A stretch of DNA of 64,000 nt from Pristiophorus japonicus. Its lineage: Eukaryota. This document shows, one piece after another, positions 6,089 to 59,121 of the stretch (positions within the stretch are counted from its first letter, which is position 1; every line of letters starts with the position of its first letter). Under the pieces are notes generated by a model, which did not search any database, was not told where the DNA came from, and saw only the letters and a list, made by a program, of their open reading frames with translations. The DNA lies in NCBI RefSeq assembly GCF_044704955.1, contig NC_091984.1:52886001-52950000 (forward strand). Direction: 5' to 3'. Both the position numbers and the translations under genes were made by a program.

Positions 6089-6131
6089 CATTCAGCCTTG
6101 CTTGCCTGTTGGACCTTACTCGCAAAAATGT
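6089..6131 (-). CDS. RNF220: RNF220 coding exon (equivalent to mammalian exon 6), 43 nt, phase 0 to 1
   Basis: cttttctgtttttcttTAG|ACA TTT TTG CGA GTA AGG TCC AAC AGG CAA GCA AGG CTG AAT G|GTAAGG = TFLRVRSNRQARLN; recalled human TFLRVRANRQTRLN; continues in frame from the 96-nt exon. Confidence 0.95.
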
Positions 6132-6284
6132 CTAAAGAAAAACAGAAAAGAAAGGTGAAAAATAAACAAGAGGCACTCAAACTGTCAGATTTTGTTTGAA
6201 TATCTGTGAAAAATCTGCCTGAAGCAGCTAGATTGCAGTGGATTCTCTCAATGCCTAACTGCACAGGATGTAAACAAAACCTAC

Positions 6285-6335
6285 TTCCTCCTTGCCATTG
6301 GTCTGTTCTGTATCCTCCATTACTGCTGGGTCCAT
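6285..6335 (-). CDS. RNF220: Candidate alternative first coding exon of a short RNF220 isoform (MDPAVMEDTEQTNGKEE); in-frame upstream ATG at 6377 would add MPSNINRFSHFNPA
   Basis: ATG in good Kozak context (gctATGG), 17 codons, donor GAA|GTAGGT in phase 0, 153-nt intron to the phase-0 TFLRVR exon; directly downstream of a promoter motif cluster. Confidence 0.6.
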
Positions 6336-6379
6336 AGCAGGATTAAAATGGGAGAACCTGTTAATATTACTTGGCATGA

Positions 6380-6600
6380 ATGTAGCAGCTGGGAACTTTA
6401 CACCTTTATAATCCGATCCGGGCAGGTCACAGAAACAGAGAGGATGTCATTAGATTCAAACCAAGAGGCTGCATCTTGCTCAGCTTGCACCAGGCCTTGA
6501 AAACCGCCGGGTCACGTGACCGCCAGCGAAAGGTGAAAGTGCAAAGTACAAGGCGCACATGCGCAGATTGGCCGATAGGTGGCAGCAGACCAGCACTGAA
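6380..6600 (-). promoter_or_regulatory. Putative internal promoter of RNF220
   Basis: CpG-enriched non-repeat patch with CTCF-like TGGCCGATAGGTGGCAGCA (6569-6587, + strand), CCAAT (minus, 6571-6567), NRF1-like GCGCACATGCGCA (6553-6565), palindromic E-box GGTCACGTGACC (6510-6521), minus-strand TATAAAG (6410-6404) and Inr-like CTACATT about 27 nt downstream. Confidence 0.7.
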
Positions 6601-7203
6601 GCGCTGTACCTGAATTCCACCCTGGAGTTTCATTCTGCAGTTTAAACCAAAGCCTATTCTGCATCGGTCGCTGCTTTGCGTAGCAGACAATTCCTTCGTT
6701 AAATAATTACATCAAATCGATTAAAATAAATATTTTAATGCATTTAAAACACAAAGTCTCTTTTTGACCAGTTTTGGAAATAATGGAAAAAATTGCATTA
6801 ACTTTTTAAAGGAGTGCCTTGGACTGAAAATTCCTTATTGAAGAGATGCCACTCATTGGAACTGGGAAAAGGACAGCTAATATGTCAGTGGGCCTTTAAA
6901 GTGACAAGACTTTTTTTTAAATGGAAGGAAAGATGAACTTGTTTTCTATTTTTTTACATATAGACTAATATTACTCTGAGTAAGTTACAAGATTCAATAC
7001 AGGAAGTTTAGATGATGTTACACACTGCTCCAGTGGGTCGTAAAAGTTTTCTAAACCACTTTAGATAGCAACATATACTATATCAATTATTTTTTAAATC
7101 ACTTTTTAATCATTTTGTGGGCACTCCAGCAAAGGTTGCAAGGCTGTGATAACATAATGTTGAACACAAGATACAGCTATGAATCATGACCTATGACTTT
7201 TTA

Positions 7204-8895
7204 ATTAATTCATAGGATGTGGGCGTCGCTGGCAAGGCCAATTGCCCATCCCTAATTGCCTTGAGAAGGTCACTGCAATCCGCGTTGGGCAGGGAGTTCC
7301 AGGATTTTGACCCAGCAATGATGAAGGAACGGCAATATACTTCCAAGTCAGGATGGTGTGTGATTTGCAGGGGAACTTGCAGGTAGTGGTGTTCCTATGA
7401 GCCTGCTGCCCTTGTCCTTCTAGGTCGCGGATTTGTGAGGGGTTGTCAAAGAAGCCTTGGCGAGTTGCTGCAGTGCATCTTGTAAATGGTACACACTGCA
7501 GCCACGATGCGCCAATGGTGGAGGGGTGAATGTTTAAGGTGGTGGATTGGATACCAATCAAGCAGGCTGCTTTGTCCTAGATGGTGTCGAGCTTGACTGT
7601 TGTTGGAGCTGCACTCATCCAGGCAAGTGGAGAGTATTCCATCACACTCCTGATTTGTGCCTTGTAGATGGTGGAAAGGCTTTGGGGAGTCAGGAGGTGA
7701 GACACTCGCCACAGAATACCCAGCCTCTGACCTGCTCATGTAGCTACAATATTTATGTGGCTGGTCCAGTTAAATTTCTCCCCAAGATGTTGGTGGGGGA
7801 TTCGACGATAGTAATGACAATGGTTTGACTTTCTCTTCCTGGAGATGGTCATTGCCTGGCACTTGTGTAGCGCGAATGTTACTTGAATGTTGTCCAGATC
7901 TTGGTGCCTGCGGACAGGGACTGCTTCATTATCTGAGGATTTGCAAATAGAACTGAACACTGTGCAATTATCAGCAAACATCCCCACTTCTGACCTTATG
8001 ATGGAGGGAAGGTCATTATGAAGATACTTGGGCCTAGGACACTGCCCTGAAGAACTCTTGCAGCGATGTCCTGGGGCTGAGATGATTGGCCTCCAACAAC
8101 CACAACTCTCTTCCTTTGTGCTAGGTATGACTCCAGCCAGTGGAGAATTTTTCCCCTGATTCTCATTTTGACTTCCAAGTTTACTGATGCCACACTTCAT
8201 CAAATGCTTGATGTCAAGGGCAGTCATTCTCACTTCACTTCTGGTATTCAGCTCTTTTGTCCATGTTTGGACCAAGGTTGTAATGAGAACAGGAGCCGAG
8301 TGGTCCTGGCCGAACCCAAACTGAGCATAGGTGAGCATGTTATTGGTGACTAAGTGTCATTTGATAGCACTGTCGATGACACCTTTCATCACTTTGCTGA
8401 TGATTGAGAGTAAACTGATGGGCCGGTAATTGGCCAGATTGGATTTGTCCTGCTTTTGTGGACAGGACATACTTGGGCAATTTTTCAATTTGTTGGGTAG
8501 GAATTTTGAATTTTGGAGAGGAATTTTCCCAGATTTTTTCTCCCTAACTTGGCCTGGGTTTTTATCTGGTTTTTGCCTCTCCCAGGAGATCACATAGCTC
8601 CGGTTGGGGTGGAGTGTAGAATGTTTCAGTATAAGAGGTGTCGCAGTTGTGTGAGGCGGACTGGTTGGGCTGGGTGCTCTTTGTCTTTCCGTAATTGTTC
8701 ATAGGTTTATATGTAACCTTCAGGGCTGCTGACCAAGGGCCGTGTGGCTCTTTGTCGACCGGCGTGGACATGATGGGCCGAAATGGCCTCCTTCTGCGCT
8801 GTAAATTTCTATGTTTTCTATGCCAGTGTTGTCACTGTACTGGAACAGCTTGGCTAGAGGCACGGTTAGTTCTGGAGCACAAGCTCTCCGCACTA
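7204..8895 (-). mobile_element. Decayed CR1-clade LINE, RT region plus 3' UTR
   Basis: ORF fragments ANYRPISLLSIISKVM, QFGF...HSAP, ALDIK, QGSVLGP, MFADNCTVF (RT YADD-equivalent motif); multiple frameshifts. Confidence 0.9.
8501..8820 (+). mobile_element. SINE-like or truncated CR1-tail element inserted in the LINE
   Basis: Interrupts the LINE between gggtag and atgccag; ends with the CR1-type tail gggccgaaatggcctccttctgcgctgtaaatttctatg. Confidence 0.7.
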
Positions 8896-14888: not shown

Positions 14889-14986
14889 ATAAAAATAGTT
14901 GGAACATTGTTCGGGTACGCATAAGAATCACTTTGCACCTGGGTTCTTACAACAGTCAATGGATGCCGTTCTTCCCCCTTTCCCAC

Positions 14987-15082
14987 CTGGTATCTGTCCG
15001 AATGATGAGTGTCATCTGCAGAGAGAGGCGACGCTGTCGGAGACTCCCCTTCCCTTTTAATTGGTGCTGATAGCAGAACAGA
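14987..15082 (-). CDS. RNF220: RNF220 coding exon (equivalent to mammalian exon 5), 96 nt, phase 0 to 0
   Basis: Polypyrimidine tract ttttttttctctctctctacAG, then SVLLSAPIKREGESPTASPLSADDTHHSDRYQ, donor CAG|GTGGGA; matches recalled human SLLLSASIKREGESPTASPHSSATDDLHHSDRYQ. Confidence 0.96.
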
Positions 15083-17660: not shown

Positions 17661-19803
17661 AATCATTCACATAAAACCATTGTGATGCCAGAGAGCCAGT
17701 AACTCACACATGTCCTCTGGGCACATGGGTTGTATACTTTCAATAACTCATCATTCTCATTAATCCTTTAAATAAATACAGGAATGGCGCAACTTTGTAT
17801 CTAGTATTTAAAGAGTAACACACCCACAATCTACTTTAAAAAAAACTATTAGTAAGGACTGCAATTAGCATTGATTAGTTGTTTTTGCTGCGGATTTAGC
17901 GACTATTTATTGTTTTAACTGATGACATCATAAGGGGAGCTGGTGGAGGGGAGGGTCTATGGCTGACAGTGTGAAAGAGCTGAATTACTGACATTAGAGA
18001 TTCATTCAATGACCCAGGATACTTCACCAAACATATCAATCTACAGCGCGTGTTAGTTAATTCTTGTGCAGTGGTCATTCCCAATAGCTGCTCTTTGTCA
18101 ATTCCCCTCTCCCCAATGATGTCATCAACTTTCACCAATTAAACAAAAATGTATGTATATATTTTAATCAGCAGAAACAAACAGGGAGAAAAGTATGCTA
18201 AGGGTAATCATAATCCTTTGTAAATGTTTAATTTATAAGAGAAGTCTTGACAGTGCGACTTCTTTAACCACTGATTTAACATTTCCTTCTTCTCTAGTCC
18301 TAGGGTTGGTCTGATGTCCAGGATGTACCGAGACAGTATTTTTGTAATGTAAATTATTCTTTCTTTCCCTTCCAAAACCTTTTATTCAAAATAGGGTCAA
18401 ATGATTAATAGACCACAATAGTTTTAGTCAAGTAGAAGCTCATTCCTGTATTAATCAAATAACTGAATAATCGGTGTTCTCCCTATGCAGACAGTGGAAT
18501 TAAATGTTATGTATTGGTTTCATACTTTTGGCCAGCTGCTAAAGCAAGGCCCATTTATTTTGCAGCCTCTGAGATCCATGGAGACGACCTCTGAAAAATG
18601 TAGGGCCGAACTAATCCCAAACATGTCAATCTCAAGCCCTCTTCTACATACGGCTGCAGTTCAGCTTAATAAACTATTCTTAAATACTGTGGAGCTGCTC
18701 ACTTCCAAACACTCCCTTGCATGCGTAAGTGAAAGTGCAGAGCCACGGATACCAAATAATACTGTCCTCCTGCGGCTGTAGTGTATTATAGGAGTGTCAC
18801 AAATAATAGATCTTTTAATGCCAAACAGTCACGGGTTGCCTGGGTGAATAATCGATTATTTGGTGATGATCAAAAAGGGACGCATGCCAGTTGGTACAAT
18901 TTCAGCATTTTATTTTTTTAATAAATATTATTATTTTGAACTACAATCCAGAAATGAGACACTATCAATCATCCAACACTGTAAAGCACATTCCATTTTT
19001 CATGAGGGCCAACAGTTGGAGTTGCCAGTTGTGGTACTCAGCTAGATGAGAATGCGGCTGATGGGTGATGTAGTGGAGAAATAGCACAAATGTATGCAAC
19101 CTATGTCTTTAGCACATGCCTGGTGAATAAAATGTCATATTTATTAAATATGCTGGGGACATCTAGTGGTAAAATACTAATACTGAATCACTTTTAAAAA
19201 CTTATCAACCTATCATAGTGATACAGACTGCAAAATATCATAAGTATCACCGGAAGACAATTTGAACCAGCTTAAACCTTTTCTATCATGTCCAATATCA
19301 GCTGTTCATCAGGCACATATAGCTCAATCTGACACTGGAGAATCAAGTATTTTAAAGACTTGGATTTATCTAGCAGCTTTCACGACCAACAGACATCTCA
19401 AAGCGCTTTACAGCCAATGAAGTACTTTTGCAGTGTAGTCACTGTTGTAATGTAGTGATGGGCACAGAGTGTAGTTTGTTCATAAATGACTGACATACAT
19501 AATAAATAGACTGTTGGTAGTTTCGCTCCCAACTGGGTCACATGTTTAAGTCCCAGGTGCTGCCTGTCGCTTGAACTTGCGAGCCTCACATTGGGTGACC
19601 TTCATTTCTCAGCTGTGTAGAGCGTTGGACAACAGCAACCATTTCCATCCGGCAGCTTGTGACTACTTCTCCCCATAAATCACACTTCCTGCTGGATAAT
19701 GCGTAAGGCATTAGCAGTGTGCTATGAAAAGATTGACACCCAAATGAAGGAAAAGCCTACATACAAGAGGGGGAAAAAGATTTTGATTTTATTTAAATTA
19801 TTT

Positions 19804-20399
19804 GGGCTAGAAATTTGGCGATTTTGCGACCGGGTTTTTGATGCAATTTCATCTTTTTTGGCGAAAACCCGGTCGGCGGAAAATTCGTTGACGTTTTGCG
19901 GTGGCGCTTTTCAAATACTGCTGGAGAGGAGCGCCGCCGTGCAAGAATTGAAATATCGCTTTCACCTAAAATTTGGCTCTGTGTGCATCCATATTTTGCA
20001 CGAAAAAGACGGACAGGGAAAAAGCTGCATTGCAGCCCTTGGAGCAGCGGTAAGTATGAAGACCTGCAAAAAAGGTAAGTTAAAATTTTAATTATTTAAT
20101 TCTTTTGCAGCGATTCACTCGATAAGTCTCTTGTATACGTTTGGTGAATTTTTTTTGTTGGTTTTTTCCAATTTACTTTTAGGTGTTTTTCCGCCCTCCC
20201 AAGGCCCAACTCACAGCGGTTTCGGCCTCGGATTAAAGTTGGCAAGAATCGCGGTTTGAGTCGCGAATTCTCGTGCAACGCCGATTTTTACCGCTGCGCA
20301 AATTAAACCTTGAATTTACGGCCTCATAGCAATAGTGTTGCGATAACGGTAATTTTGGCAAAAAAATACAGTTATCGCTGAGAACCGAATTTCTAGCCC
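19804..20399. mobile_element. Harbinger-type MITE
   Basis: Perfect 12-bp TIR GGGCTAGAAATT / AATTTCTAGCCC; CpG-rich. Confidence 0.8.
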
Positions 20400-20414
20400 A
20401 TACTCTGTGATAAA

Positions 20415-21272
20415 AGGCCCAAATTTGGCCAGGAGTTGCTCCGCTTTTTTTTTTTAAGTGTCTTAAAAAACCCCATTCTGCATTTAATTTGCGCCAGTGT
20501 AAGTGAGTTAATTAGGATTTTTTTTAGTTTAGTTTAGTTTTTTTTTCCAAAAGGGGTTGTTACCAGCCACCTATGCCTGTTTTGGCCATTTAAGCCAGTT
20601 TGGACAGTTAATAGTTGCTCCAAACTAACTTAGGCCAGTGTATGTGGCCACTTGTGGCCCGCACAGAAAACCCTTGCGGAGAGTTAAGAAATCAGCGCAG
20701 GTAAGTACATTCTGAAGCACCAAGCACTAAACAAAGCACATAAATAAGCATTCAATAACAAATAAAAAATACAAGGAAGCTGAGAGGACCTGCACCTAGC
20801 ACCAAGACTAACAAAGCACTAAACAAAGCACAAAAAGTAATAAGCAATTAATTAACAAATAAAAAATAGAAGGAACCCTGCACCTAAAAGCACCAAGACC
20901 AAAGTAATAAGCAATCAATCAATCAATAATAAATAAAAAATAGAAGTTCTACCAAAACAAGGCCCGGGAAGGCTGCAGGCTGCCGATGAGGGAGACCATT
21001 CGGCCAGGGATAGGGGCGGCGCGCTTCGGCCCCTCCCACACAGCCTGCAGCACATTCTCACAGATTCTGGGGGTGAGGAGCTACTGTGCATGCGTGCACA
21101 CTCTAGTGCGCATGTGCAGAGGTCCTGTTCCGCCCCCGAATCCAGTGGCAACACTACGCCACCATCGAGGAGAGGCTGGGGAGCGGCCAAACTTGGCCCG
21201 AAGATTTTTGGAGCACTTCCAGGCGGACCTCTGGTGAGTGCGCCAGAAATCTGTACTGGCCAAATTCTACCT
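20415..21272. mobile_element. Harbinger-type MITE with internal tandem repeats
   Basis: TIR AGGCCCAAATTTGGCCAG / CTGGCCAAATTCTACCT; three A-rich units (agcaccaag...aataaaaaatagaag) at about 20714-20946. Confidence 0.75.
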
Positions 21273-21933
21273 CAATAAGAGTTGAATTTAAAGGGAAATC
21301 AATGCGACTTTCAACCACCTTAAATTTAATGAGATATGTTGTAACTTTATTATTATAAACTTTTATTAGAAGTCTCAGAAGAAGCGTCATCAAAGCCAAT
21401 TAAAGCCCTTGATACTAAGAAATAATTCTGCCAATGCGAAATTTATGACAATATTTTGCGATCTTTATTCGAACAGTTTGGTGCTGTGGTGGCAGGAGAT
21501 TTCACATTTGGCTATACAATAAATGGTTATGAGCTAAGCCATTACAAAAAGTGTCGTGGTTGCATACTGCTGGAAACCACGGAATGGGAATCAGTACACT
21601 TTCCGAATTGAATGATTTTTGAAGTTCAGACAGATGCAGCCACCAGAAGTGCAACCTTGAGTTGCTGGAAGTTCACATTTAATAGTAACCATCTAAATTT
21701 AAATGATTTGAAGGAAAGTCCAGGAATACTATCAAAATATTTTATCTTAAATTATCATTAGCTAACCAACATTGCACCCTCCTAATATAGTGATCCTGAA
21801 GCTTTTTGAACAGTAACAGTAAAGACTAAGGGGAAAAAGTGCTGGATTACTTAACCTTTCTGTGACATGAATTAGGAGGCCTTCTATTTCGCTTTTCCCA
21901 GTTTGTCTGCTGAGGGGAGCAACCAAAAATACG

Positions 21934-23437
21934 GGCCCGTAATTTGCAGTCAGTGGTGAAGCAAAGGCGCTCGCTCGCTCATTGGCCCCGAAGAAAGCTT
22001 CCCACAAAGATCCCACAATCTCTGTGGCGAGAAGTTCTGCTTTCTCGACATGCAGTTGAGTTTAGTGGGAATTTCGTAGCGCAAGCTGCTGGGACATCAA
22101 CAAGCTGTCGGAGCAGCCAATCACAACGCAGAGTTCCCACCTACAGCAAACTCGGAAGTGAGTAAGCTCCTTTGATTCTAACTCTTTAAAAATGTTAGTC
22201 GGCAAAACAAAGATTGGGGCTCTCACATGGGGAAAAGGGAAACCTGAAATAAAGATGAACAATCTTTTAAAAAATATACACTTTTTAAGTTTCTTAAACA
22301 TTTTAATTTTTTTATTAAAATGGAGAAATTTGACACTCCACAAAATTTAAATTAGTTTTTCAGGGTCATAATGTTTGTTTAGCCGTCAATACGCTGTTAA
22401 AATCCCAGTTACATCTGATCCAACAAGACCGAACATTGAATGGGGTATTTAACAGCGATATTACTGCAGGAAAGCCAAAGAGGTCAGAATTGCCCCTTTC
22501 CCTCTTTGAGGCGGCCACAGGTCGGTAAGGAATCACCACTGGGTCAGCGTGGAGGGGCCCACATTTTAAAAATTGCCCTGGTGGATTTTCCCACCAGAGA
22601 TTGTCTCCGCTCCGTCCGTTTTCCCACCCCGTCGGGCACCCTGCGGGAAATTTCCCCGTCCGGAATTGCCCCGCCGGTCAGTACCACTGACAACTTTTTC
22701 TGGCGGCAAACTTCTTGTGGCTGGGGAGGGGAGGGCGCACTACCACAGCCGTCTTTTTATTTTAATTGTCGGCCAACTGCCAGGTTGGCCCAACAATGGT
22801 AGTCATGGGTTCGGCCGGGCCGCCAACAGGCAGCCCCGCATGTCCTCTTGGGTACCGGGCCGCTGGCCCGGCCTAAACCCTCCCTGGTGGCCCAGTGTTT
22901 GCCACTAAAGTGGCTGCAGAGTTCACAGCGGCCCTCCCCTTTAACTGAAGGGGAAAGATGTTGTGATGCGTTAGCGCCACGCGGCACGTCCCGTCGCGCT
23001 GACATCATCACGGCACACTGATGACTCGGAGCGACGGCCACTCCGACCCGCCCGCACTTCCGCCCTGATGATGACACCACTTCCGTCCCGCTCCAAAAAA
23101 AACCCAACAAGGACCTGAATTTTTCCGGATTGTCCACCCTATGCATTGGGGCGGATGGAACCCTTATAAACTAATAGGTGCGCCCTGTTTCGGGCAGTAT
23201 CGGCCCCGAAGTTTTCATCAGTTTCACTGATATCCCCGATTACACTGATTGCCGGCTATGGGGGGACGGAGGGGGTTGCACACCACAGCCAGTGTCGGAG
23301 TAGTGAATGACTGACCATAACTTCAGGAGTTCCGTGTTAGGATGCGCTAAATCCTGAAGTTGCGGTCAGTTTCAAAGGGGTAATAACAGCGAACGCGATT
23401 CACTGACTGTTACTACACTGACTGCAAATTCCGAGCC
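21934..23437. mobile_element. Harbinger-type MITE containing a nested MITE
   Basis: 21-bp TIR GGCCCGTAATTTGCAGTCAGT / ACTGACTGCAAATTCCGAGCC. Confidence 0.75.
22480..23207. mobile_element. Nested GC-rich Harbinger-type MITE
   Basis: Termini GAGGTCAGAATTGCCC / GGGCAGTATCGGCCCC; internal similarity to 46400-47000 and 47583-47923. Confidence 0.65.
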
Positions 23438-24367
23438 ATTATTTTGTAAAACAGAACTCTCTATATGCATGGGAGCATGCATGGACCCAATTTAACAATA
23501 TCTTCAAGACTACCAACATTATAATCTGCTGCCTTCCTTGTCTTGGAATTGTGAATTTATGCCAGTAAGGACTGTGTCTGTAAGTCCTAACATCTCTCTT
23601 GTTTTCTCAAGCTGGAGAGAATGATATGGAAGTGCAGCTATCCCAGCATCCATAGTGGTAGTGAAAGCCCTCTATAAAAACTACAGACAAGTTTGCACCT
23701 CACATATGCCAACCTGCAAAACTAGGAAAAGCTGACTCAGCCTCAAATAAGCAGACCTGAATATTTATGACATATAGCTAAGGTGAAAGTGCAGGCCTGT
23801 CATGAACTAAGCGGCAGATATACCCACTATGTGAATCACTTATGTAGTGGAAGATTGTGGCAAAAAAAAATGGGGATTTCCCCTCATTTCTTGTGGGAAA
23901 ATTAGGGGCAGTTTTCCTCTGCAGGCCACCACTGGGTGCACAGTAGATTCAGTGAACCAGACACGCACTGTGCTTTTGAGTGAACTTCCCACAATTTTCC
24001 TGACACGGGCCATTTGCATGAGCTGGACATAGTCCTGGCTGCTCGCATCAGGACCTTCTGGCTACTGCTGCTGGAGGGACCTGAAAATTATCATGGGCGG
24101 GAATTAAAAAAAACTCACCAGTCACCACTTACCTCAGAGGTTCGAAGCGAAAGGCCTACTGCCAGGCTTCTGCAGGTACTCTTCGCTTGTTACCCAATGG
24201 TCAAGCAAAGAGGAAACTGAGGCAGGAGGCTGGGAAAGACCCCTCCTGCCTCATCTGCATAATTACACTGGAGCAACACTGATTTACAACTGCAGACACT
24301 GCACTAAAATTCAGACTGTACATGTGAAATGTGTGCCACAATCAGCCAGGGTACTGATTCTTGGTCG

Positions 24368-27469: not shown

Positions 27470-28051
27470 ATCCAATATCCCTGCCTTGCCAACCCCTCAT
27501 GATCGGACACTCCTCCCACCCTTCCAATCTCCCAGCAACCTCTGTCCCAAGGCCTCCGACAGCCGCCCACAAGGCCTCCGCTCTCCGAACCTCCCCCACC
27601 CCCACGGCTTTCCGCTTACACCCCCTCCCTCCACAGCCTCCGATTCCCCCGTCAAGCCTCAGATCCCCCTCCCGGCTTTCCAACCCACGTCCCCGGACCC
27701 CAACTCCCCCACCGGTCTGTGACCCCGCCCCCCCCCCCCCCAGCCTCCGATCCTCAGCTCCCCAATCTCCCTTCCGGCCTTCCAACCCCCGTCCAGCGGA
27801 CCACAACTCCCCCTCCGGTCTGTGACGCCTCCCCTCCTCCGATCCTTCACCTACACTCTCTGATCCATGGTCCTGAGTGCCCATCCTGCCTTCCGAACGA
27901 CTCCAACCTCCAGCCTTCCTACCACCTCCGATGATCAAAGCCTTCCAATCCCCCCCTCCAGCCTTCCGGCCCCCTCCAACTCCCTTTGACCATCCCCAGC
28001 CTTCCAATCCCCCCTCCAGCCTTCCGACCACCTCCGACGATCAAAGCCTTC
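27470..28051. repeat. C-rich degenerate tandem repeat (gccttccaatccccc / gcctccgatcccc units)
   Basis: Repeated units visible directly; they generate the low-complexity Pro/Gly ORFs in the track. Confidence 0.75.
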
Positions 28052-31000
28052 TATTGTGTTTCAAACACAGTTGAGACTGCACACAGGGAGATTAAAGTAA
28101 CAGTAACCTCAGTCTTTATTAAGACACTCCAGAGTGAGGAACAGGCCTTAGGGGCCGGCTTATATAAAGTGCTCCCAAGGGATGCTGGGGTCCCTTGGGA
28201 CTTCAGGGGATGCGCTCCCTGGTGGCGGAACATGGGAGTGCATGCTTTACAGATACACAACATCACTCCACCACCCCCCCCCCACAAAAGTCAAAGTGAA
28301 AACTATTTACAAGGTGAAGCGGTTGGGAGCCTTTCTTTTCCTGGTGGACTGCCTCGGTACAAATATCTGTTCTGGTGTGTTGGCTGTGCCCTCACTGGGC
28401 TGGCGTGTTGTTGGCCCTGCAGGGCTGCTGGGTGAGCCTGGCCTTGCTGGGCTGTTGGGCGTGATGGGTTCGATTTCCTGGTCCGGGGTGGTGTCGTTGA
28501 TCCTTTGGGTGTGTGTTGTTGGCTCGAAAAAGGTGGTGTCGTGTGTGGGTTGTTCAGAGCAGTCTGTGAACCGCAGCCTCGTTTGGTCCAGGTGGTTTCT
28601 GCAAATTTGTCCATTGTCTATTTTGACTACAAACACCCTACTCCCTTCTTTAGCTATCACCGTGCCCGCACTCCACTTGGGACCATGTCCATAGTTTAGC
28701 ACATACACAGGATCATTCAGATCAATTTCCCGTGACACAGTGGTGCGACCATCGTTTACATTTTGTTGCTGCCGCCTGCTCTCTACCTCATCATGCAGGT
28801 TGGGGTGAACCAGCGAGAGTCTGGTTTTAAGTGTCCTTTTCATGAGTAGCTCAGCCGTGGGCACCCCTGTGAGCGAGTGGGGTCTGGTAGCTGAGCAGTA
28901 CTCGGGACAGGCGGGTTTGGAGTGAGTCTTCTGTAACTCGTTTAAGGCTTTGTTTGATGGTTTGTACTGCCCGCTCTGCCTGCCCATTGGAGGCTGGTTT
29001 AAACGGGGCCGAGGTTGACATGTTTGATTCCGTTGCGGGTCATGAATTCTTTAAATTCGGCACTGGTGAAACATGGCCCGTTGTCACTGACCAGTATGTC
29101 AGGCAGGCCGTGGGTGGCAAACATGGTCCTCAGGCTTTCAATGGTGGCGGTGGTGGTGCTTCCCGACATTATTTCACATTCAATCCATTTTGAAACAGCA
29201 TCCACTACCACCAGGAACATTTTACTGAGAAACGGGCCTGCCTAGTCGACATGGATCTTTGACCATGGTCTGGAAGGCCAGGACCACAAACTTAGTGGTG
29301 CCTCTTTGGGCGCGTTGCTCAACTGAGCACACACGCTGCATTGCCATACACAGGACTTAAGTCAGAGTCAATACCGGGCCACCACACGTGGGATCTGGCT
29401 ATCGCTTTCATCATTACTATACCCGGATGTGTGCTGTGGAGATCCGAGATGAACGTCTCCCTGCCCTTTTTGGGTAGCACTGCGCGGTTACCCCACATCA
29501 GGCAGTCTGACTGAATGGACAGCTCGTCCTTTCGCTGCTGGAATGGCTTAATTAGCTCTTGCATTTCAACAGGGATGTTGGCCCAGCTCCAATGCAGTAC
29601 ACAGTTTTTATTAGGGACAGCAGAGAATCTTGGCTGGTCCAAGTCCTAATCTGGCGGGTCATGACAGGTGATTTATCATTTTCAAATGCTTCCATGACCA
29701 TCAACAAGTCTGCGGGCTGCGCCACCATCAACACGTTTGCAGGCTGCACCATTTCCACCTCCGTGGTGAGCAATGGTAGCTGACTGAGAGCGATCCGCAC
29801 AGTTCTCAGTGCCTGGCCTGTGGCAGAGGGTATAGTTATACGCTGATAGCGCGAGTGCCCACCTTTGTATGTGGGCTGAGGCATTAGTATTTATCTCCTT
29901 GTTTTCAGCGAACAGGGATATGAGGGGCTTGTGATCGGTTTCCAGCTCAAATTTGAGGCCAAACAGGTACTGATGCATTTTCTTTACCCCGAACACACAT
30001 GCTAATGCCTTTTTCTCAATCATGCTGTAGGCCCTCTCGGCCTTAGACAAGCTCCTGGAGGCATAGGCGACAGGTTGCAACTTCCCCGCAACGTTAGCTT
30101 GTTGTAATACACATCCGACTCCATACGACGACGCGTCACATGCTAGCACAAGTCTTTTACACGGGTTATACAATACAAGCAGCTTGTTGGAGCATAAAAT
30201 GTTTCTGGCATTCTCAAAACAATTACTTGTTTTTTTCCCCATACCCAGTTCTCACCTTTACGCAATAATACATGCAGGGGCTCTAAGAGGGTGCTTAACC
30301 CCGGTAGGAAGTTATCAAAATAGTTGAGGAGTCCCAGGAACGACCGCAGCTCCGTGACATTCTGTGGCCTGGGCGAGTTCCTGATAGCCTCTGTCTTGGC
30401 GTCTGTGGGCCGAATGCCGTCCGCCGCGATCTTTCTCCCCAAAAACTCCACTTCTGTTGCCGTGAAGACGCATTTAGACCTCTTCAGTCGCAGCCCTATG
30501 CGATCCAGTCGCTGGAGGACCTCCTCCAGGTTTTGTAGGTGCTCGACGGTGTCCTGATCCGTGACCAATATATCGTCCTGAAAAACTACCGTGCGTGGTA
30601 CCGACTTGAGTAGGCGCTCCATATTTCTTTGGATGATCGCTGTAGCCGACCGAATTCCAAACGGGCATCTGTTGTAGATGAACAGTCCCTTGTGCGTGTT
30701 GATGCAGGTGAGGCCCTTCGAAGACTCCTCCAGCTCCTGCGTCATGTAGGCTGAAGTCAGGTCGAGCTTCGTGAACGTCTTGCCTCCTGCCAGCGTCGCA
30801 AATAGGTCGTCTGCCTTAGGTAGCGGGTATTGGTCCTGTTGCGAGAAACGATTAATAGTTGCTTTATAATCGCCGCAAATCCTGACCGTGCCATCACTTT
30901 TGAGTACTGGAACAATCGGGCTGGCCCACTCACTGAATTCCACTGGGGAGATGATGCCCTCGCGTTGCAGCCTGTCCAGCTCGATGTCAACTCTCTCCCT

Positions 31001-32649
31001 CATCATGTGAGGTACCGCTCGCGCCTTGTGGTGAATGGTTCGTGTCTCTGGGACCAAGTGGATCCGCACCTTCGCCCCGGAAAAGTTTCCAATGCCTGGC
31101 TCAAAAAGGCAAGGAAATTTGTTAAGAACCTAGGTACATAAGGCCTTATCGACATGTGATAGCGCTCGGATGTCATCCTAATTCCAGCGGATTTTGCCCA
31201 GCCAGCTCCTTCCAAGCAGTGTGGGGCCATCGCCTGGGACAATCCAGAGTGGCAGTTCGTGCACTGTGCCCTCGTAGGTGACCTTGACATGGCGCTGTCC
31301 AGGACAGTGACAAGCTCTTTGGTGTATGTTCTCAGTTTTGTGTGGTTGGGGCTCAGGGCTGGTCTGAGTGCCTTGTTGCACCACAGTCTCTCAAACATCT
31401 TTTTATTCATGATGGATTGGCTAGCACCAGTGTCCAGTTCCATGGCTACGGGTAAGCCATTCAATTGTACATTTAGCATTATAGGTGGACATTTCGTCAA
31501 AAATGTGTGCACCCCGTGTACTTCAGCATCTGCCTCCTCTCTCTGAGGCTCGAAATTGCTTTGATCCACCAAGGACCGATCTTCCTCTGCCACATGGTGG
31601 TTAGCAGGTCGAGCTGCAAGCTCGTTGGAGGTGCCCCATTGTTCCACAACTCTTGCAAACATACTCTTTGAAGTGGCAGGAATAGGCTGAATGGAAGCCT
31701 CCAAAACGCCAACATGGTGTGAATTGCCTTGCATTCATCCTTTGTTGCGGATTCTGAGTCATCTGGGTCACCTGAGGCCTGCTGGCAGTTGCAGACTCGT
31801 GGTTTCTGCCCTGTACATTTCTGCTTGCAAACACAGTTCCAGTTAATTTATGAACATTGCTAGCACATTTGTGCTGAGAGATTTGTTTGGTGTTATCACT
31901 GGTGGACATAATCGCCTATGCTATCGCAATGGCATTACTGAGGGTCGGTGTCTCTACAGTCAAAAGTTTTCGTAGGATGGTCTCATGGCCAGTGCCCAGT
32001 ACAAAAAAGTCTCTGAGCATTTGCTCCAGGTAGCCATCAAACTCACATTGTCCTGCAAGTCACCTTAGCTCGGCGACGTAGCTCGCCACTTCCTGACCTT
32101 CAGATCGCTGGCACGTGTAGAACCGATACCTCGCCACCAGCACGCTCTCCCTCGGGTTACGATGCTCCCAAACCAGTGTACACAGCTCCTCATGCGACAT
32201 ATCTGTGGGTTTCACCGGAGCCAGAGGATTCTTTATGAGGCCGTAGGTCGGTGCCTCGCAGACCGTGATTAGGACTGTTCTCCTTTTTGCAGCGCTTCCT
32301 TCTCCGTCCAGCTCGTTAGTTACAAAGTACTGGTCTAGCCGTTAGACATAGGCTTCCCAGTCCTCACCCTCCGAGAACTTCTCCAGGATGCCCACAGTTT
32401 GCTGCATCTTTGCGTTGAATTCATATACTCGTCGCCAGTTATTGTGTTCCAAACACAGATGAGGCTGCACACAGGGAGGTTAAAGTAATGTGACCTCAGT
32501 CTTTATTAAGACACTCCAGAGTGAGGAACAGGCCTTAGGGGCCGGCTTATATACAGTGCTCCCAAGGGATGCCGGGATCCCTTGGAACTTCAGGGGATGC
32601 ACTCCCTGGTGGTGGAACATGGGAGTGCATGTTTTACAGATACACATCA
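28052..32649 (-). mobile_element. Full-length decayed Ty3/Gypsy LTR retrotransposon, Mag-like (K02A2.6-like)
   Basis: LTRs 32440-32649 (5') and 28052-28265 (3'); 5-bp TSD CCTTC (28047-28051 and 32650-32654); PBS TGGCGACGAG (32437-32428) complementary to the 3' end of tRNA-Ser(GCU); G-rich PPT next to the 3' LTR; domain order gag-PR-RT-RH-IN. Confidence 0.97.
28307..32407 (-). pseudogene. Gypsy gag-pol, disrupted by stops and frameshifts
   Basis: gag MQQTVGILEKFSEGEDWEAYV*RLDQYF; paired Zn knuckles CWRFGGFHSAYSC...CKSCGTMGHLQRAC; protease ELDTGASQS; RT WASPIVPV, KLDLTSAY, FQDD; RNase H LACDASSYG, TDHKPL; integrase HSTHPG...VWWPGID, VVVDA, VSDNGP. Confidence 0.95.
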
Positions 32650-32896: not shown

Positions 32897-34080
32897 CTCA
32901 TCATCATCCTTGGCAGTCTCTCGAAATCGAGGAAGACTTGCTTCCACTCTAAAAGTGAGTTCTCAGGTGACGGTACAGTCCAATATGGGAATTACAGTCT
33001 CTGTCACAGGTAGGACAGTCAGTCTTTGAAGGAAAGGGTGGGTGGGACTGGTTTGCCGCACACTCCTTCCGCTGCCTGCGCTTATTTTCTGCATGCTCTC
33101 GGTGACAAGACTCAAGGTGCTCAGCGTCCTCCTGGATGCTTTTCCTCCACTTAGGGTGGTCTTTGGCCAGGGATTCCCAGGTATCGATGGGGATGTTGCA
33201 CTTTATCAAGGAGACTTTGAGGGTGTACTTGAAACGTTTCCTCTGCCCACCTGGGGCTCACTTGGTGTGTAGGGTGCTTGCTTTGGGAGTCTTGTGTCGG
33301 ACATGCGTACAATGTGGCCCGCCCAACGGAGTTGGCTGAGTGTGGTCAGTGCTTCGATGATGGGGATGTTGGTCTGATCGAGAACACTGATGTTGGTCCG
33401 TCTGTCCACGCAGGGGATTTACAGGATCTTACAGAGACATCGTTGGTGGTATTTCTCCAGCGATTTGAGGTGTCTACTGTTTTTGGCCCATGTCTCTGAG
33501 CCATACAGGAGGGCGGGTATCACTACAGCCCTATAGACCATAAGCTTGGTGCCAGATTTGAGGGCCTGATCTTTGAACACTCTCTTCCTCAGACGACTGA
33601 AGGCTGCGCTGGTGCACTGGAGGCCGTGTTCGACCTTGACGTCGAAGTCTACCCTAGCTGATAATAGCCTCCCAAGGTATGGAAAGTGGTCCATGTTGTC
33701 CAAGGTCATGCCATGGATTTTGTTGACTGGGGGGCACTTCTGTGTGGCGGGGTCAGGTTAGTGGAGGACCTTTGCCTTACGGATGTTTAGTGTAAGGCCC
33801 ATGCTTTCGTATGGCTCGGTGAAGATTGTGGTGTATGTAGCACACAAATCACTGACTCCACACGGTCTGGTGTAAATCTAACTGCTGTGACCTTCGTCCT
33901 TTATTGTTCAGCTCCAGAGTGCCTCTCAGGTGTGGTGGTCAGCCTTATATAGCACCTGTTGCAGGTACTACCAGGGTTTCCCACCACAGCGCCCTCTGTG
34001 GGGTGGCATAGTGCTTACATTACATTTAAGGTACTGGGACGATACACACATCATTACATAACATAACAAAGATGTTGACT
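32897..34080 (-). mobile_element. RTE-clade LINE 3' portion, interrupted by a solo LTR
   Basis: Peptides FPYLG, KLMVYRAVVIPALLYGSETW, QLRWAGHIVRM...RLPKQ and terminal CPTCDRDCNSHIGLYRHLRTH; (TGA)n tail. Confidence 0.9.
33827..34068 (-). mobile_element. Solo LTR (242 bp) of a Gypsy family related to the adjacent full element
   Basis: TG...CA termini; perfect 5-bp TSD AAGAT (33822-33826 and 34069-34073); shares gtgacct...tttatt...ctccagagtg...cttatata with the 28052 and 32440 LTRs. Confidence 0.9.
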
Positions 34081-39948: not shown

Positions 39949-39994
39949 CTTCACAGTCCCCTGGATTGTGCTGTCCTTCAACATGGAATGCTTA
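39949..39994 (-). CDS. RNF220: RNF220 coding exon (equivalent to mammalian exon 4), 46 nt, phase 2 to 0
   Basis: Minus strand tttcctgtttcttcaacAG|T AAG CAT TCC ATG TTG AAG GAC AGC ACA ATC CAG GGG ACT GTG AAG|GTAAGT = (S)KHSMLKDSTIQGTVK; aligns to recalled human SKNSLLKDAMAPGTPK with the same length; strong splice sites. Confidence 0.9.
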
Positions 39995-42900: not shown

Positions 42901-45508
42901 GGGCAGTTATCAGGCAGGAGAATAGTATTAGGACTCGCCCAATGCTGTCTTCCACAATAAGAGCTTCATCCCTTTAACCAGCCTCTGGGCAAAGTTTCAT
43001 GCGTAGATCCAGCTAGAAACTTTCACACTGTAAAGCACCACACAATCAACACTACGCTAAAGAAAGGCGTGCAAAATACTGGCAGAGTAATAATGACAAA
43101 TGGACAGATGTGTGTGATAGATTGTGACAAAACATATTTGGAACCGTTCCGGGAACATTCTTTTTTTTATTAGTTTTCTATAAAACGGATTACTAACCTT
43201 TAGAATGTATTAATCTGTATTCTAGCCAGGAAGAATTTTCTTATTAATTACCCTGAAGTAAAACTCTTCAATTATACATTTAAATTATTGAAGTTTCAAT
43301 CTAATCTCTTATGAAATTTCCCCTTTTAGACAAGTTCAATTTGAAACAATTATATATCTTTAGAAAATGAGTTGGAAATAAATTTTTTATTAAAGTAATT
43401 ATGCAATGGCAGATGTACATTATTCTTTTACAAACGAAAACAGAGCACTGAGAAATAATGATTTTTTTTGTCACATCAAATTTGTAACTCTTTTCTCCTC
43501 CTTTCTTCATCATAGCACTTAACTGCTGAAAGATGTAGACGCTATAACATGCATCTATCTACTTGAGAATGTATTGTACAAAAATTACATACTTATAGCA
43601 CCAATGCCATCAGCCTCAGGGGGAAAGCAGCTTACTATAAAGGCCAGATCTTAACTGCATCCGCCTTGCAACTTTGGGAATGACTGATTATAAGGCAGCA
43701 AGTATTAAAAAGCATTGCTAAGCGCTGGTCGCCAATAAGGGAAGACAGATCAAATCATATCTGTGCTGCAGACACTAATATCCTAGGCTGCAAACAGGGA
43801 CATCAATACATTTTTATGAGACTTTGAAAAGATCAACACAGTAGATGTGACAAAAAACAATGCTCCTGTCATGTTCAGTTTGTCCGCAGTGCTCAGCCAC
43901 AGATGCCTAAGAGTATGTCAGCGGAGCGAAATTTAATTTTACAAGATTAAATCCACCTTCATTTGGCAGATGGCCGGATGCCTTGAAATGAGCACTGAAG
44001 GTGTCTCTTGAAGACATGCGGTGCTAAGCTCCTCCAGGACATTTTGTTTTAAAGCAGCATACAAACCAGAGAGGCAGAAAGAAGCGTCTAATATAAAGCA
44101 AGACTAATGCAATAAATGCATTATGGAAATGGAGAGTGTTATTGAGACAGAGAGAGGGAGAAAGAGAGAAAGAGGGGAGTGTTCAAATATAAAGTGGATT
44201 TGGAATTTCTTGTCTCCCCAGTCATGCATCTTGCTTTTCATCATGTTTATAATGCAGCCCGTGTGAGGTTTTTTTTGTCTTTCTTATAATCCAGTTTGCA
44301 GGATTTAAGGAAATAAAATCCCAAATCCACATACTTCTAAGGGAGCAGAGGGTTTACAATCTGCCAGTGACAATCCGAAGAAGTCAAAAAGAGACTAACA
44401 GTTTGACAAAAAAAAAAGGAAAAGAAAAGAAAAGGTACAAAGTGGAACAAATAGAAAAGGCAGATTATCTCTTTTTCTATAGAGTTGTTGTGAAACCCAG
44501 AGGACTGTATAGTTGAATGAGAGAATAAAAAGAGAGTTCTATGCTGTCTGGGAGGTGATGTCAACTCTTCTGATAATTAATCCACTGAAAACAGAGGGAC
44601 AGATTGTGCTCGTTTGTCAGAATTCAGCTTTTTGCAAACGTCTGTAAAAGCATGTTATGTATTTTGTCTAATAATGTCAATGATACTTCGTGTAAAATAG
44701 ATCAAAGTTAAACCAATTAAAAATGATAAGGGCTTCTTTAACCTTTGGGCTGCTGATCATTCCTCACAAACTAGCATTCAACAAAGTCAATAAATTCTTT
44801 GAAAAAGGAAAAAATCCTGTATTTAGGTTTGTTTTTATTTTCTCAGGGAAATTATTGACTTGTTTTCAGCACTGTAGAGTGAAGAAGAAATGACTAATTG
44901 AAAACCACAAATTTTCAATGCGTAACCAATTGAATAATTGGATTTTGGACTGAAAGTTTCATATTCAGCGATTCTCCACCATGTATCCTGCTTATAACAC
45001 AGGGGTGGGGATGAACAGCAGCACTTTCAATCACTTTCTTTAAATTATTTTCTTTATTGTCCTTTTCTCTAAGGGTGACGTGAGGCCACAGCCCAAGGAA
45101 CATAGCTCGATTTCAAGTGTTTAAGTCCCTGTTGTATTCAACAAGCTTCGGGCCCACTTTTGTTGTATAACAATACTGCAGTGTCCCGTTTCTAATGATC
45201 AATATAATTAACTTTCCAGTCAATTTTATGCATTCAGAGTAAGCCACCCTGGGATCTCTGTGACTAAGAGATCATATAAGACTAGAAGGTACACACATAC
45301 CATAATATTCACTCACTGACAATGTCGCAGCACCCCTACTTTCCTAAAGACCAATGGAACCATAGAACCACAGAGGTTTACAGCACAGAAGGAAGTTATT
45401 TGGCTAATTGTATCTGTGCCAGCACTTTGCTAGCGTAATTCAAAACCAATTCTTCTGCCTTGTTTTCTCCTCATCTACCACCTGTCTGCCCAATCCACTA
45501 AACAGTGT

Positions 45509-47000
45509 GGGGGAGAAATTGGGGTAGTTTGTGCCTCCCATTAGCGCACCCAGGGAGTGCTAACGGGGCGCAAACGACTTTTCACCCTGGCGTGGCGCTG
45601 CTAACGACTCCCGCTAACTTCTGCGGGAGTTTAGAGGTGGCGGTAAATGGTCGCGCCCCACTCCGCTGTACCGGCGAGGACGACGGCATCACCGTGTGCA
45701 GCGACCCGTTTTCGCCCCAGAGCAAAAGTTCGTGATCAACCCCTGAAACTGCGACGGGCGATGCCAGAGATAGCTTCAGGGAGAGCGTACATGGCGGCCG
45801 GCCGTTCGCGGGGCACTAGTTAAAGGGGAGATGGTGTGCGCGTCAATAAAAAAATCGGCCGACTTACTTGTCGTGGCCCGTTGCCTCCTTGAACGCGGGG
45901 TTCATGCCGAGATTTGGCAGCCCAGCACGCCGCTCGAGCGCTGGGCTAATGGCGCGGCACCTAAGGCCTCACAGAATCTGCAGCTTGGCCCTCCCCTTTG
46001 ATGAAGGGGAGAGCCCCTTCTACGCGGCAGCGCTACATGCCTTGTGCAGGAAGTCCTGCCTCACGGATGTTACCGCACACAAACAGGACGTTATGTAAGT
46101 TCCCGGTCTATATGTCTTCCTGAAGTTTCTTTACAGTCGTCCTCAAAATTTCCAAAACCCCCGGCTGTTGCGTCGTCAGCAAATATCAAGATTGTGCTCC
46201 CTATATTGAACCTCAAATCAATTACATATATATTGCTACCAAAAGGAGACCCAGCACTCACCCCTGGGGTAGACCACTTCCAACACTCTCCAGCCTGTGC
46301 AACACCCAACTCCTTGATTCCTGTATATCAACCAACTTTCTATCCCTATTGCTACACTTTGTCTTATTCTGCATGCCTGGATTTTTCCAGGAGTTTGAGG
46401 AGGGTCATGCCCTGCGGTTAGTACCCCAGGCCGCCTTACAAGCAGCAATGACGTCATTGGCGTGCGCGCCAACCCCTCACCACCCCACACCAACCACTTA
46501 CTGTCCCACGGGGGAAATTGCCCTGCGGGCAGCGAGGCTGGAGCGAGCGGATGTCAATGCCAGCAACGCGGGTCGCGAAGCGTCCCGGGCCACCACTATT
46601 TTTGGATTGCCGACTCTTAGGTCAGCTCCAGCATGGCGGCCCTAGCATGGTCTGGGCCACCATCGTACAGCCTGGCACTCCGTTTTGGATGATGGGCTAC
46701 AGGCCCGGTCCAACACTGCCCTGGTGGCCTAGTGGAGGCCATCAGAGGCCTTGCAGAGTGCGCAGAGGCCCTCCCCTTTAAGCGAAAGGGAAGGGCTTTG
46801 AAGCGCTTCACGTGGAGCATCTGCATCGCGCTTCCCTCACCGCCTCAGTAGCACCTCGATAACCACCCCCAAAGGAAGTGGATCGCGTGAGATTGCGCTC
46901 CAGTTCCTTTGAGGTGGGGTAAGCTGAATTCAGCGGCGGAGAACGTGCCGGCCCCAGATGGTTACCACCCCCAATCGGGGCACAGGACAATTTCACCCCC
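45509..47000. mobile_element. Harbinger-type MITE(s) enclosing a CR1 RT fragment (about 46165-46400)
   Basis: Termini GGGGGAGAAATTG / CAATTTCACCCCC; both ends homologous in reverse to 58435-59121; internal minus-strand peptide PFG..IYVIDL...IFADD. Confidence 0.65.
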
Positions 47001-48660
47001 TTAAATTTGTGAAATACTACTTGCATTTAATAGATTTGTGCTGGTTCTCTTTGTTTAACCCATGCATTTCTTACTAATTTGATCTCAAATTATGAATTCC
47101 AAGGGTTTATTCACAACTGATATTGGACTAATTGAGCCATAGTTTCCCAAATTATCCTTACCTCCCTCCTTGAACAAGGGTGTTATATCAGCTACTCTCC
47201 CGTCCCATGGCACCATTTGTATATTTAAGGAGGATTAAAAAATTGCTCCTGTGCATCTGCTATCTCCTCTCTGACTTCTTTCAACAGCCTAGTAACATGC
47301 AATCGAGGCCCAGTTACTGAACCATCTTGATCCCTGCTAATATTTTCAGAATCAGATGTTTTCCTGTGCTTATCTGTAACAGAATGTAAATATGCTGTGG
47401 CCATTATCTACTCATTGTTTTCCTACATTCACATCAATTATTTGCCTCAGTTCATTTTCCAGGACTAAATCAAGCAAGGCTTTTTTCCTTGTTAGACTAA
47501 AAACTTCCTGATCTGGGAAGTAGTCCTGAATGCATTCTGAAAAGCATTCCCCACTTTGAATTAGTTATAGCTACTATATCATGGGGGTGAAATTGCCCCC
47601 CTTCTTTAAGGGATGGTAATGGGGCGGTAAGGCCTTTCCGACCGGGGGCAGATGGATGGTCTGACTCATCCGAAATTGCCCCCGGATCGGGGGTGGCGAA
47701 AACGGGCACGCGCCGACCCCTTACTGCCCGGCGGCGACCCCTTCCCGCCCCGCGAAGGAAATTGCACTGCAGGAGCGGAGCTGTCGCCACTCGGTGCCCC
47801 TGACAGCTTTTCCTTTTAAAGAGACTAATTTCCCTCTATTCTCCGCCCCATGGATTCGGGCAGAGAATATTCATTTAATTTGAATTATCCGCCTCGTTTG
47901 GGGCGGAGGGCAATTTCGGCCGGCATAATTCTCCAGTCGTTAATGCTTCAAACTCTCATTTTGTTTTGAATATACTTACTACTCAATTCTGGCTCCAATT
48001 TTTTGGAATGTTGACCTTTATTTTTTTCCCCCTGGTTTTCTCATTTCGATTTTTGATATAATTTGTCCTCTCTGCAAGTGTTTATATCCCTCACTACCTC
48101 ATAGTCTATTTCTTTGCTTTTCTCGTATGATAGTATTTTCTCACTATTTATTTCAATTAACTTTGCTGCTTCTATTCCAATAGTTTTAATAATCCTTTTG
48201 TTCCTCTCTCGTCTCAAACCTACACTTTCTCCTGCCCCCTGCCGTACTAGTTTAGATCCCCGTGCCGCTGCTCTATCTACCATTTCTGCAAGGGCATGGG
48301 TGATGCTTCGGTTCAGGTGAACGTCCTCCCTTTAGTGTAGCCTTCTCATTTTCTCGAAATCTCTCCAGTGCCCTAAGAATATGAAGCTTTTCTTCCTGCA
48401 ATCACACATTGACTGTGTTAATTTTCCTCCTTTTAACCTGTCCAGCGTGTGGCACAGAAAACAATTTGGATATTGCCAGCCTTGTGGCTTTGTTTTCCAA
48501 TCTAGTGCCTAAATCCATAAACTCGCGCTGCAATAATTCAAATGTACCTCTATCTATGTCACTAGTTCCAATGACATTTGGCTGCTCTCCCACCCTTTCC
48601 ATGAGTTTTTTTTATACTTTCACCTGGCATCAGGGAGGCAGCCACCATTCGAGACTCCCA
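47001..48660 (-). mobile_element. Old CR1 LINE body (RT, endonuclease and ORF1 esterase remnants), interrupted by a MITE
   Basis: ORF 48402-48602 EQPNVIGTSDI...LQREFMDLGTRL...AIS.L.SVPHA resembles the CR1 ORF1 SGNH esterase; RT-like DNA near 47130-47290. Confidence 0.65.
47583..47923. mobile_element. Harbinger-type MITE
   Basis: GGGGGTGAAATTGCCC / GGGCAATTTCGGCCGG termini, apparent 3-bp TSD CAT. Confidence 0.7.
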
Positions 48661-58434: not shown

Positions 58435-59121
58435 AGACCTAGAAATTGGGTACCGCCCCGTTTGGGGGCAGTAACACTCACGAGGCTCGATCCTCACGAT
58501 AAATTGGGGTTACTGCCCCCGAAAGGAAGCTGAAGGCTAAATCAAGCGCTCAACTTCCTTCCTGGGGTGGGAGCGGGGCGCACGGCTCAGCAGCGCTACG
58601 TATTGGGCCGCGTAGTGCTGCCACGTACGAGGGGCTCTTCCCTGAATTAAAGGGAAGGGCCCAAGCTGCATATTCTGCAGAGTAGGAACCCACCTACCTG
58701 GACCACCGGGGAGCGGGGATGCCACACGATCAGCCTGGCACTCAAGCAGATTGTCAGGCCGAGCGATCGCGGAACTGAGCTCACAACTAAAGCGGCTCCG
58801 GAGCAGGAAGCGAAACAGGAGTTTTTTTCCAGCTGCAGCTGGCCAACTCCCCTTTAAATTTTGCCCTGGTAGCAGCCAGCTGCCGGTTACGTGATGCCAA
58901 AAGCTAGTGCTGTTACCACCGGCACAGCTTTAGGGGGCGAAACCCAATTTAGGTGCTGGTGCACAGGAGATAGGGGCACAATGCCATAGCGCCACCGCTA
59001 AACGCTCGCCGAATTTAGCGGGAGTTGTTAACGGCACCGTGCTCAGTACCAAAGTCATTTATGCCCCGTTAGCAGCCCCGGCGGAACTAACAGGACGCGC
59101 AAATGACCTCAATTTCTCCCA
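58435..59121. mobile_element. Harbinger-type MITE
   Basis: GACCTAGAAATTGGG / CTCAATTTCTCCCAC termini; homologous to the ends of 45509-47000. Confidence 0.7.

Follow-up and report, generated by a model that had tools for sequence, protein, structure and literature searches.

A spliced alternative exon in shark rnf220a, very likely the first exon of a deltaN-RNF220 ortholog

An exon between exons 5 and 6 of rnf220a

The 64-kb stretch of Pristiophorus japonicus DNA analysed here (the window) holds three exons of rnf220a on its minus strand, all of which match shark RNF220a proteins (Table 1). We refer to them as exons 4, 5 and 6, following a human numbering that is consistent with exon 5a and M38 of the deltaN-RNF220 paper considered below. 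The basic segment (RIGKMKRRK), the RING and the other downstream exons lie outside the window. A second in-frame donor (GTT/GTAAGA, with its GT at 14950) is present 36 nt beyond the exon 5 donor, and its use would add 12 residues (window 14986-14951, minus strand); the Narcine isoforms X3 and X4 (P0002, P0003) have an annotated 12-residue extension at the end of exon 5, which is partly similar in sequence.

Table 1. Features of the rnf220a locus and of the region upstream of the alternative exon, in window coordinates.
Feature	Position	Strand	Basis or remark
Long-isoform exon 4 (46 nt)	39949..39994	-	Match to shark RNF220a proteins
Exon 5 of the long isoform (96 nt, phase 0 at both ends), skipped by the short isoform	14987..15082	-	Shark protein match
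Alternative rnf220a exon (ortholog of human exon 5a, very likely), likely first	6285..6549	-	3' end 6285 exact; 5' end at least 6504-6549 in relatives' contigs
Common 43-nt exon (exon 6, human numbering), phase 0 to phase 1	6089..6131	-	Protein match and contigs
GT-AG intron, 153 nt, phase 0	6132..6284	-	Skipped in X1, X7 and X20; retained in X22
Coding part, 17 codons from strong-context ATG 6335	6285..6335	-	0/51 nt variable among differences listed
In-frame upstream extension, weak-context ATG 6377, 14 extra codons	6336..6377	-	4/42 nt variable; start of the NCBI prediction
Out-of-frame uORF, 15 codons, ATGs 6474 and 6450	6427..6474	-	0/48 nt differing among those listed
Inr-like CTACATT	6385-6379	-	Its A is 27 nt past the first T of TATA
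TATAAAG	6410-6404	-	18 copies in window
Palindromic E-box GGTCACGTGACC	6521-6510		12-nt perfect palindrome
NRF1-like site	6565-6554	-	One of 3 one-mismatch sites in window
CCAAT	6571-6567	-	155 copies in window
CTCF-like motif	6587-6569	-	2 mismatches to consensus
NRF1-like, CCAAT and CTCF-like motifs within a CpG-rich patch (6501-6700)	6554..6587		Likely proximal promoter

Exons 5 and 6 are separated by 8,855 nt, and the alternative exon falls within this intron, 153 nt before exon 6 begins. The first-pass annotation had described a Kozak ATG at 6335 followed by 17 open codons and a phase-0 donor, GAA/GTAGGT, at the exon end 6285, and we found each of these on the minus strand. In a scan of 14980-6132, which takes in all but the first 6 nt of the intron, this was the sole mini-exon running from a strong-context ATG to a phase-0 donor that passed the filter.

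To look for the predicted junction we used sequencing runs of relatives, 24 from 9 organisms, each of which contained 12-26% of the sampled words; four of the 24 were compared with the window. The runs have no RNA on record, their types are guessed, and their contigs are blind to start site, strand and level. In three of these four runs (X1, X7 and X20, from three organisms and three studies) one contig each joined 6131 to 6285 and skipped exactly 6284-6132, with GT-AG ends, as had been predicted. The exon pieces joined to 6131 were 6285-6504 in X1, 6285-6516 in X20 and 6285-6549 in X7, and at 6089 all three contigs run on into the next exon. The X20 contig had zero differences from the window across its exonic pieces. 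The fourth run, X22, is DNA-like and reads unbroken through the 153-nt intron. The 6285 exon is therefore genuine and spliced, is located between exons 5 and 6 of shark rnf220a, and is in frame with the 43-nt exon. Because the contigs are blind to starts and their three ends differ, the exon length that they give is a lower bound.

Short RNF220 forms of other vertebrates

In humans an exon 5a, located between exons 5 and 6, starts isoform 4, or deltaN-RNF220 (PMC12296455, 2025); this shortened protein has been described in mouse as well. According to that paper, deltaN-RNF220 predominates outside the brain, its start is strongly marked by H3K4me3, and it acts in the differentiation of myoblasts. 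It also reports a second start at M38 (isoform 4b), which it calls conserved, and argues that the short form is the original one, as zebrafish is without a long form; the species compared were human, mouse, chicken, zebrafish and fly.

The shark form resembles deltaN-RNF220 in having a short coding exon to itself immediately before the 43-nt exon, in missing the N-terminal half, in keeping the basic segment, the RNF220 domain and the RING (the last two as read in the related protein P0218), and in its length. It differs in its leader, which is acidic and of 12, 17 or 31 residues and which contains three in-frame ATGs and a uORF, whereas the mammalian leader has 18 residues and is Arg/Gly-rich. 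Sharks also have Asn at the Met38 position and no 4b start there.

P0218 is isoform X6 of RNF220a from the basking shark, Cetorhinus maximus, a 325-aa NCBI prediction that contains PF15926 and PF13923 and belongs to a cluster of 14 sequences. It has the same exon, the same junction and the same 17 residues right before the shared exon, which supports the earlier proposal of an N-terminally truncated RNF220. Unlike the product favoured below, this predicted protein starts at the weak-context ATG (the 6377 equivalent), and its extension has one substitution. In the zebrafish Rnf220a reference protein (P0132, 307 aa) the junction is the same and the 12-residue leader is identical at 7 of 12 positions to the peptide that begins at the 6320 ATG. 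The zebrafish protein differs in starting where the third shark ATG lies and in having Met at the 38 equivalent. In PMC7288745 the CRISPR target in zebrafish rnf220a, which is located at the basic segment, is assigned to the third exon, which fits an exon of the 6285 type being exon 1.

The first-pass annotation had overstated the novelty of its finding, since a short isoform has been described in mammals and listed for zebrafish, and NCBI predicts one in a shark. The shark exon itself was undescribed in the RNF220 literature that we searched, which covered work on shark, on isoforms or promoters and on zebrafish, outside of subscription papers.

We searched for short RNF220 proteins with an upper length of 311 aa, a limit that leaves the 325-aa shark form outside. 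Among the 120 of 360 matches listed, 49 had a Met-started leader of 8-18 residues directly before the shared exon; one of the 49 was an intron-like model and was excluded. The leader-bearing proteins came from bowfin, gar, sturgeon, teleosts, frogs, lizards and mammals. When the 3,644 open 12-codon stretches of the window that end at GT were scored against these leaders, the last 12 codons of the shark exon ranked first against 20 fish leaders (22.2, with the runner-up at 11.2) and first against 15 tetrapod leaders (15.3, with the runner-up at 11.1). Against three mammalian leaders alone they ranked 19th of 3,644; the link between shark and mammals depends on position and on the leaders of fish, amphibians and reptiles. 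The 18-residue mammalian leader sets the next Met at 38, which is the M38 of human isoform 4.

Based on the position between exons 5 and 6 and on the first rank against ray-finned fish and tetrapod leaders, the shark exon and the first exon of mammalian deltaN-RNF220 (human exon 5a) are very likely orthologs. Independent origins of the shark and mammalian isoforms within the same intron would account for the Arg/Gly-rich mammalian leader, for its weak score against the shark peptide and for promoter DNA for which we obtained no alignment to any bony vertebrate. We nevertheless regard such origins as extremely improbable, since the leaders change by degrees across shark, bowfin, gar, teleosts, frogs, lizards and mammals, and phase, position and a leader end of G-basic-acidic character are held in common.

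Two hagfish proteins of ~300 aa (P0186, P0187) are RNF220-like and have a 15-residue leader ahead of the shared-exon equivalent. As carriers of the same exon they were unsupported, since the shark codons ranked 752nd of 3,644 against these two N-termini. The Priapulus protein P0203 (307 aa) is exon-5-like in its ending before the shared segment and has no 5a-like leader. The short forms of invertebrates may not be orthologous at their start.

The position equivalent to Met38 was Asn in all 44 motif-matching cartilaginous-fish proteins (of 47 examined), and the loose ends of the X1, X7 and X20 contigs also read Asn there; in 117 other proteins it was Met in 111 and Leu in six. With Asn at this position the 4b start is missing, and from the sequences at hand sharks cannot produce isoform 4b in its described form. 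The first-pass annotation had the short isoform retain the basic RIGKMKRRK segment; the segment, which is beyond the window, has Asn in place of Met in sharks.

Start codons and candidate promoter

The exon contains three in-frame ATGs, at 6377 in a weak context and at 6335 and 6320 with G at both -3 and +4. The first and last of these, and the uORF at 6474-6427, were missing from the first-pass annotation. Across the four runs, and among the differences listed, in a listing that omits 11 rows, none of the 51 coding nucleotides from 6335 was variable, whereas 13 of the 121 leader positions compared were (Fisher p 0.011), and the same 17 residues are identical in P0218. The extension from 6377 was as variable as the rest of the leader, and the bony-fish start lines up with the ATG at 6320. 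The invariant coding nucleotides, set against a variable leader, together with the scanning rules of translation initiation, favour 6335 as the putative start in sharks. The product from 6335 would be 285 or 311 aa, consisting of 17 residues and 268 from the shared exon on, with or without an optional 26-residue insert; both the 268 residues and the insert are taken from proteins of relatives.

The uORF was also free of listed differences (Fisher p 0.02), but a 48-nt gap of this kind arises in ~15% of random placements, and given this post-hoc probability of about 0.15 we treat its conservation as a lead only. P0217, a read-through translation from a more distant relative, is compatible with retention of the uORF and of two ATGs, those at 6377 and 6335. 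Read in the same way, it is compatible with a kept CTCF-like site, E-box core, TATA-like site and Inr-like site, and appears, as judged from its amino acids, to be without the CCAAT box, the outer palindrome arm and the 6320 ATG.

All the motifs that had been claimed for an internal promoter (CTCF-like, CCAAT, NRF1-like, E-box palindrome, TATAAAG, and CTACATT ~27 nt further on) are located where they were placed. The E-box is a candidate site of the USF/MiT-TFE type, and the other factor names are likewise putative assignments. Taken singly, most of the motifs are common. GTCACGTGAC occurs once in the window versus 0.02 times expected, a count reached in 2 of 100 shuffles with the pattern chosen post hoc. 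Perfect palindromes of at least 12 nt are frequent, with 31 in the window. The CTCF-like site is the only match in the window to the consensus used, but 56 of 100 shuffles gave a match at the 3-mismatch setting. The region 6501-6700 has 13 CpG, an observed/expected ratio of 0.93 and a GC content of 53%; the median for the window is 3 CpG per 200 nt, and 7% of 200-nt segments have at least 11.

In the X7 and X22 contigs the 8-nt core of the E-box was unaltered, with one outer base altered in X7. Among the differences listed for X22 (23 of 31 in 645 nt), one was at the edge of the NRF1-like site and none was in the CCAAT box, the CTCF-like motif or the palindrome; since this contig is ~95% identical throughout, X22 provides a test of motif conservation with little power.

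The first-pass annotation had assigned the core promoter to the TATA/Inr pair, which is probably wrong. The TATA element has the sequence TATAAAGG, does not match the strict TATA consensus and is outside the 10 TATA-Inr pairs that were detected. The three spliced contigs extend 94, 106 and 139 nt upstream of TATAAAG (to 6504, 6516 and 6549), which puts the pair within the transcribed leader of at least some transcripts. These features are not those of a focused TATA/Inr core promoter. Such a promoter, initiating at ~6383 and supplying either the main start or an additional one that bypasses the uORF, would fit the 27-nt spacing from TATA to Inr, the constancy of the Inr-like 7-mer in all four runs and of TATAAAG in three of them, and the P0217 translation. 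We consider it rather unlikely, because TATAAAG is changed in X7, all three spliced contigs extend upstream of it, and the E-box and CCAAT box would sit ~130-190 nt upstream of the start. Broad H3K4me3 is typical of non-TATA promoters, and the mammalian start has broad H3K4me3 over tissues in PMC12296455. The CpG-rich cluster of CTCF-like, CCAAT, NRF1-like and E-box motifs (~6510-6590), with dispersed starts, is the likelier promoter, and the TATA/Inr pair could possibly serve, at most, as a second, minor start site.

As the contigs are blind to start site, strand and level and the run types are guessed, first-exon status and promoter position are both inferred. No splice from an upstream exon into the 6285 exon was found among the X1, X7 and X20 contigs, and the loose ends of the three spliced runs, in contigs that drop rare variants, showed no exon 5-exon 6 junction. 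In-frame stops are present upstream of 6377, which disfavours a coding cassette. The exon might instead be internal and fed by an upstream non-coding exon or by exon 5, with the motif cluster an enhancer or a product of chance, given that contigs are no proof of a start and that their ends differ. This is very improbable: the X7 and X20 contigs terminate within the region with no loose end and the X1 contig has only five unplaced letters; the CpG-rich patch sits at the contig ends; and orthologous leaders begin annotated proteins throughout the bony vertebrates. The shark ortholog of deltaN-RNF220 very likely begins with this exon.

Age of the two-start layout

We propose that an internal, CpG-rich promoter around 6500-6600 likely drives the short isoform. 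The start region would be broad and largely TATA-independent, near or just below the E-box, and the CCAAT, NRF1-like and CTCF-like sites would lie upstream of it. Ribosomes would scan past the uORF or reinitiate after it, mostly skip the weak ATG at 6377 and initiate at 6335, with some initiating at 6320. The predicted product would lack the long form's first 300 residues and would keep the basic segment, the RNF220 domain and the RING. By analogy with mammals, as described in PMC12296455, the short form may be a broadly expressed nuclear E3 ligase and the long form mainly neural.

Long forms made up 43 of 46 cartilaginous-fish matches and are annotated in sharks, rays, chimaera, sturgeon, bichir, gar and bowfin. 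Judged by these annotations and the spliced contigs, sharks have both long and short RNF220 forms. Given the long forms in these fishes, a zebrafish without a curated long form cannot prove that the short form came first, in contrast to the argument in PMC12296455. If the shark exon is orthologous to exon 5a, as is very likely, the two-start layout predates the split between sharks and bony vertebrates, as the first-pass annotation had suggested conditionally, and the internal RNF220 start would date to before the divergence of cartilaginous and bony vertebrates. The Met38 start, called conserved in the same paper, is absent from cartilaginous fishes. Neither correction alters the current view of how RNF220 works, and the exon was already among database predictions.

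A more extended reading is that two-promoter RNF220 is ancestral to jawed vertebrates, that the Met38 start is a bony-vertebrate addition, and that the shark leader tunes the short ligase through a conserved, damping uORF and a TATA/Inr start that bypasses it. We consider this combination distinctly unlikely; were it true, the published argument that the short form is original, with zebrafish without a long form, would also be undercut.

An Rfam scan of the window gave 0 matches. By eye, broken pol frames resembling those of an LTR retrotransposon (reverse transcriptase, RNase H and integrase) were seen at ~28000-32500 on the minus strand, with a repeated stretch on either side (near 28131 and 32518). 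Fragments resembling LINE reverse transcriptase were likewise seen at 7200-8700, 33000-33760 and 50900-52350. The CpG-rich stretches at 19500-23500, 45500-48000 and 58500-59000 are probably repeats.
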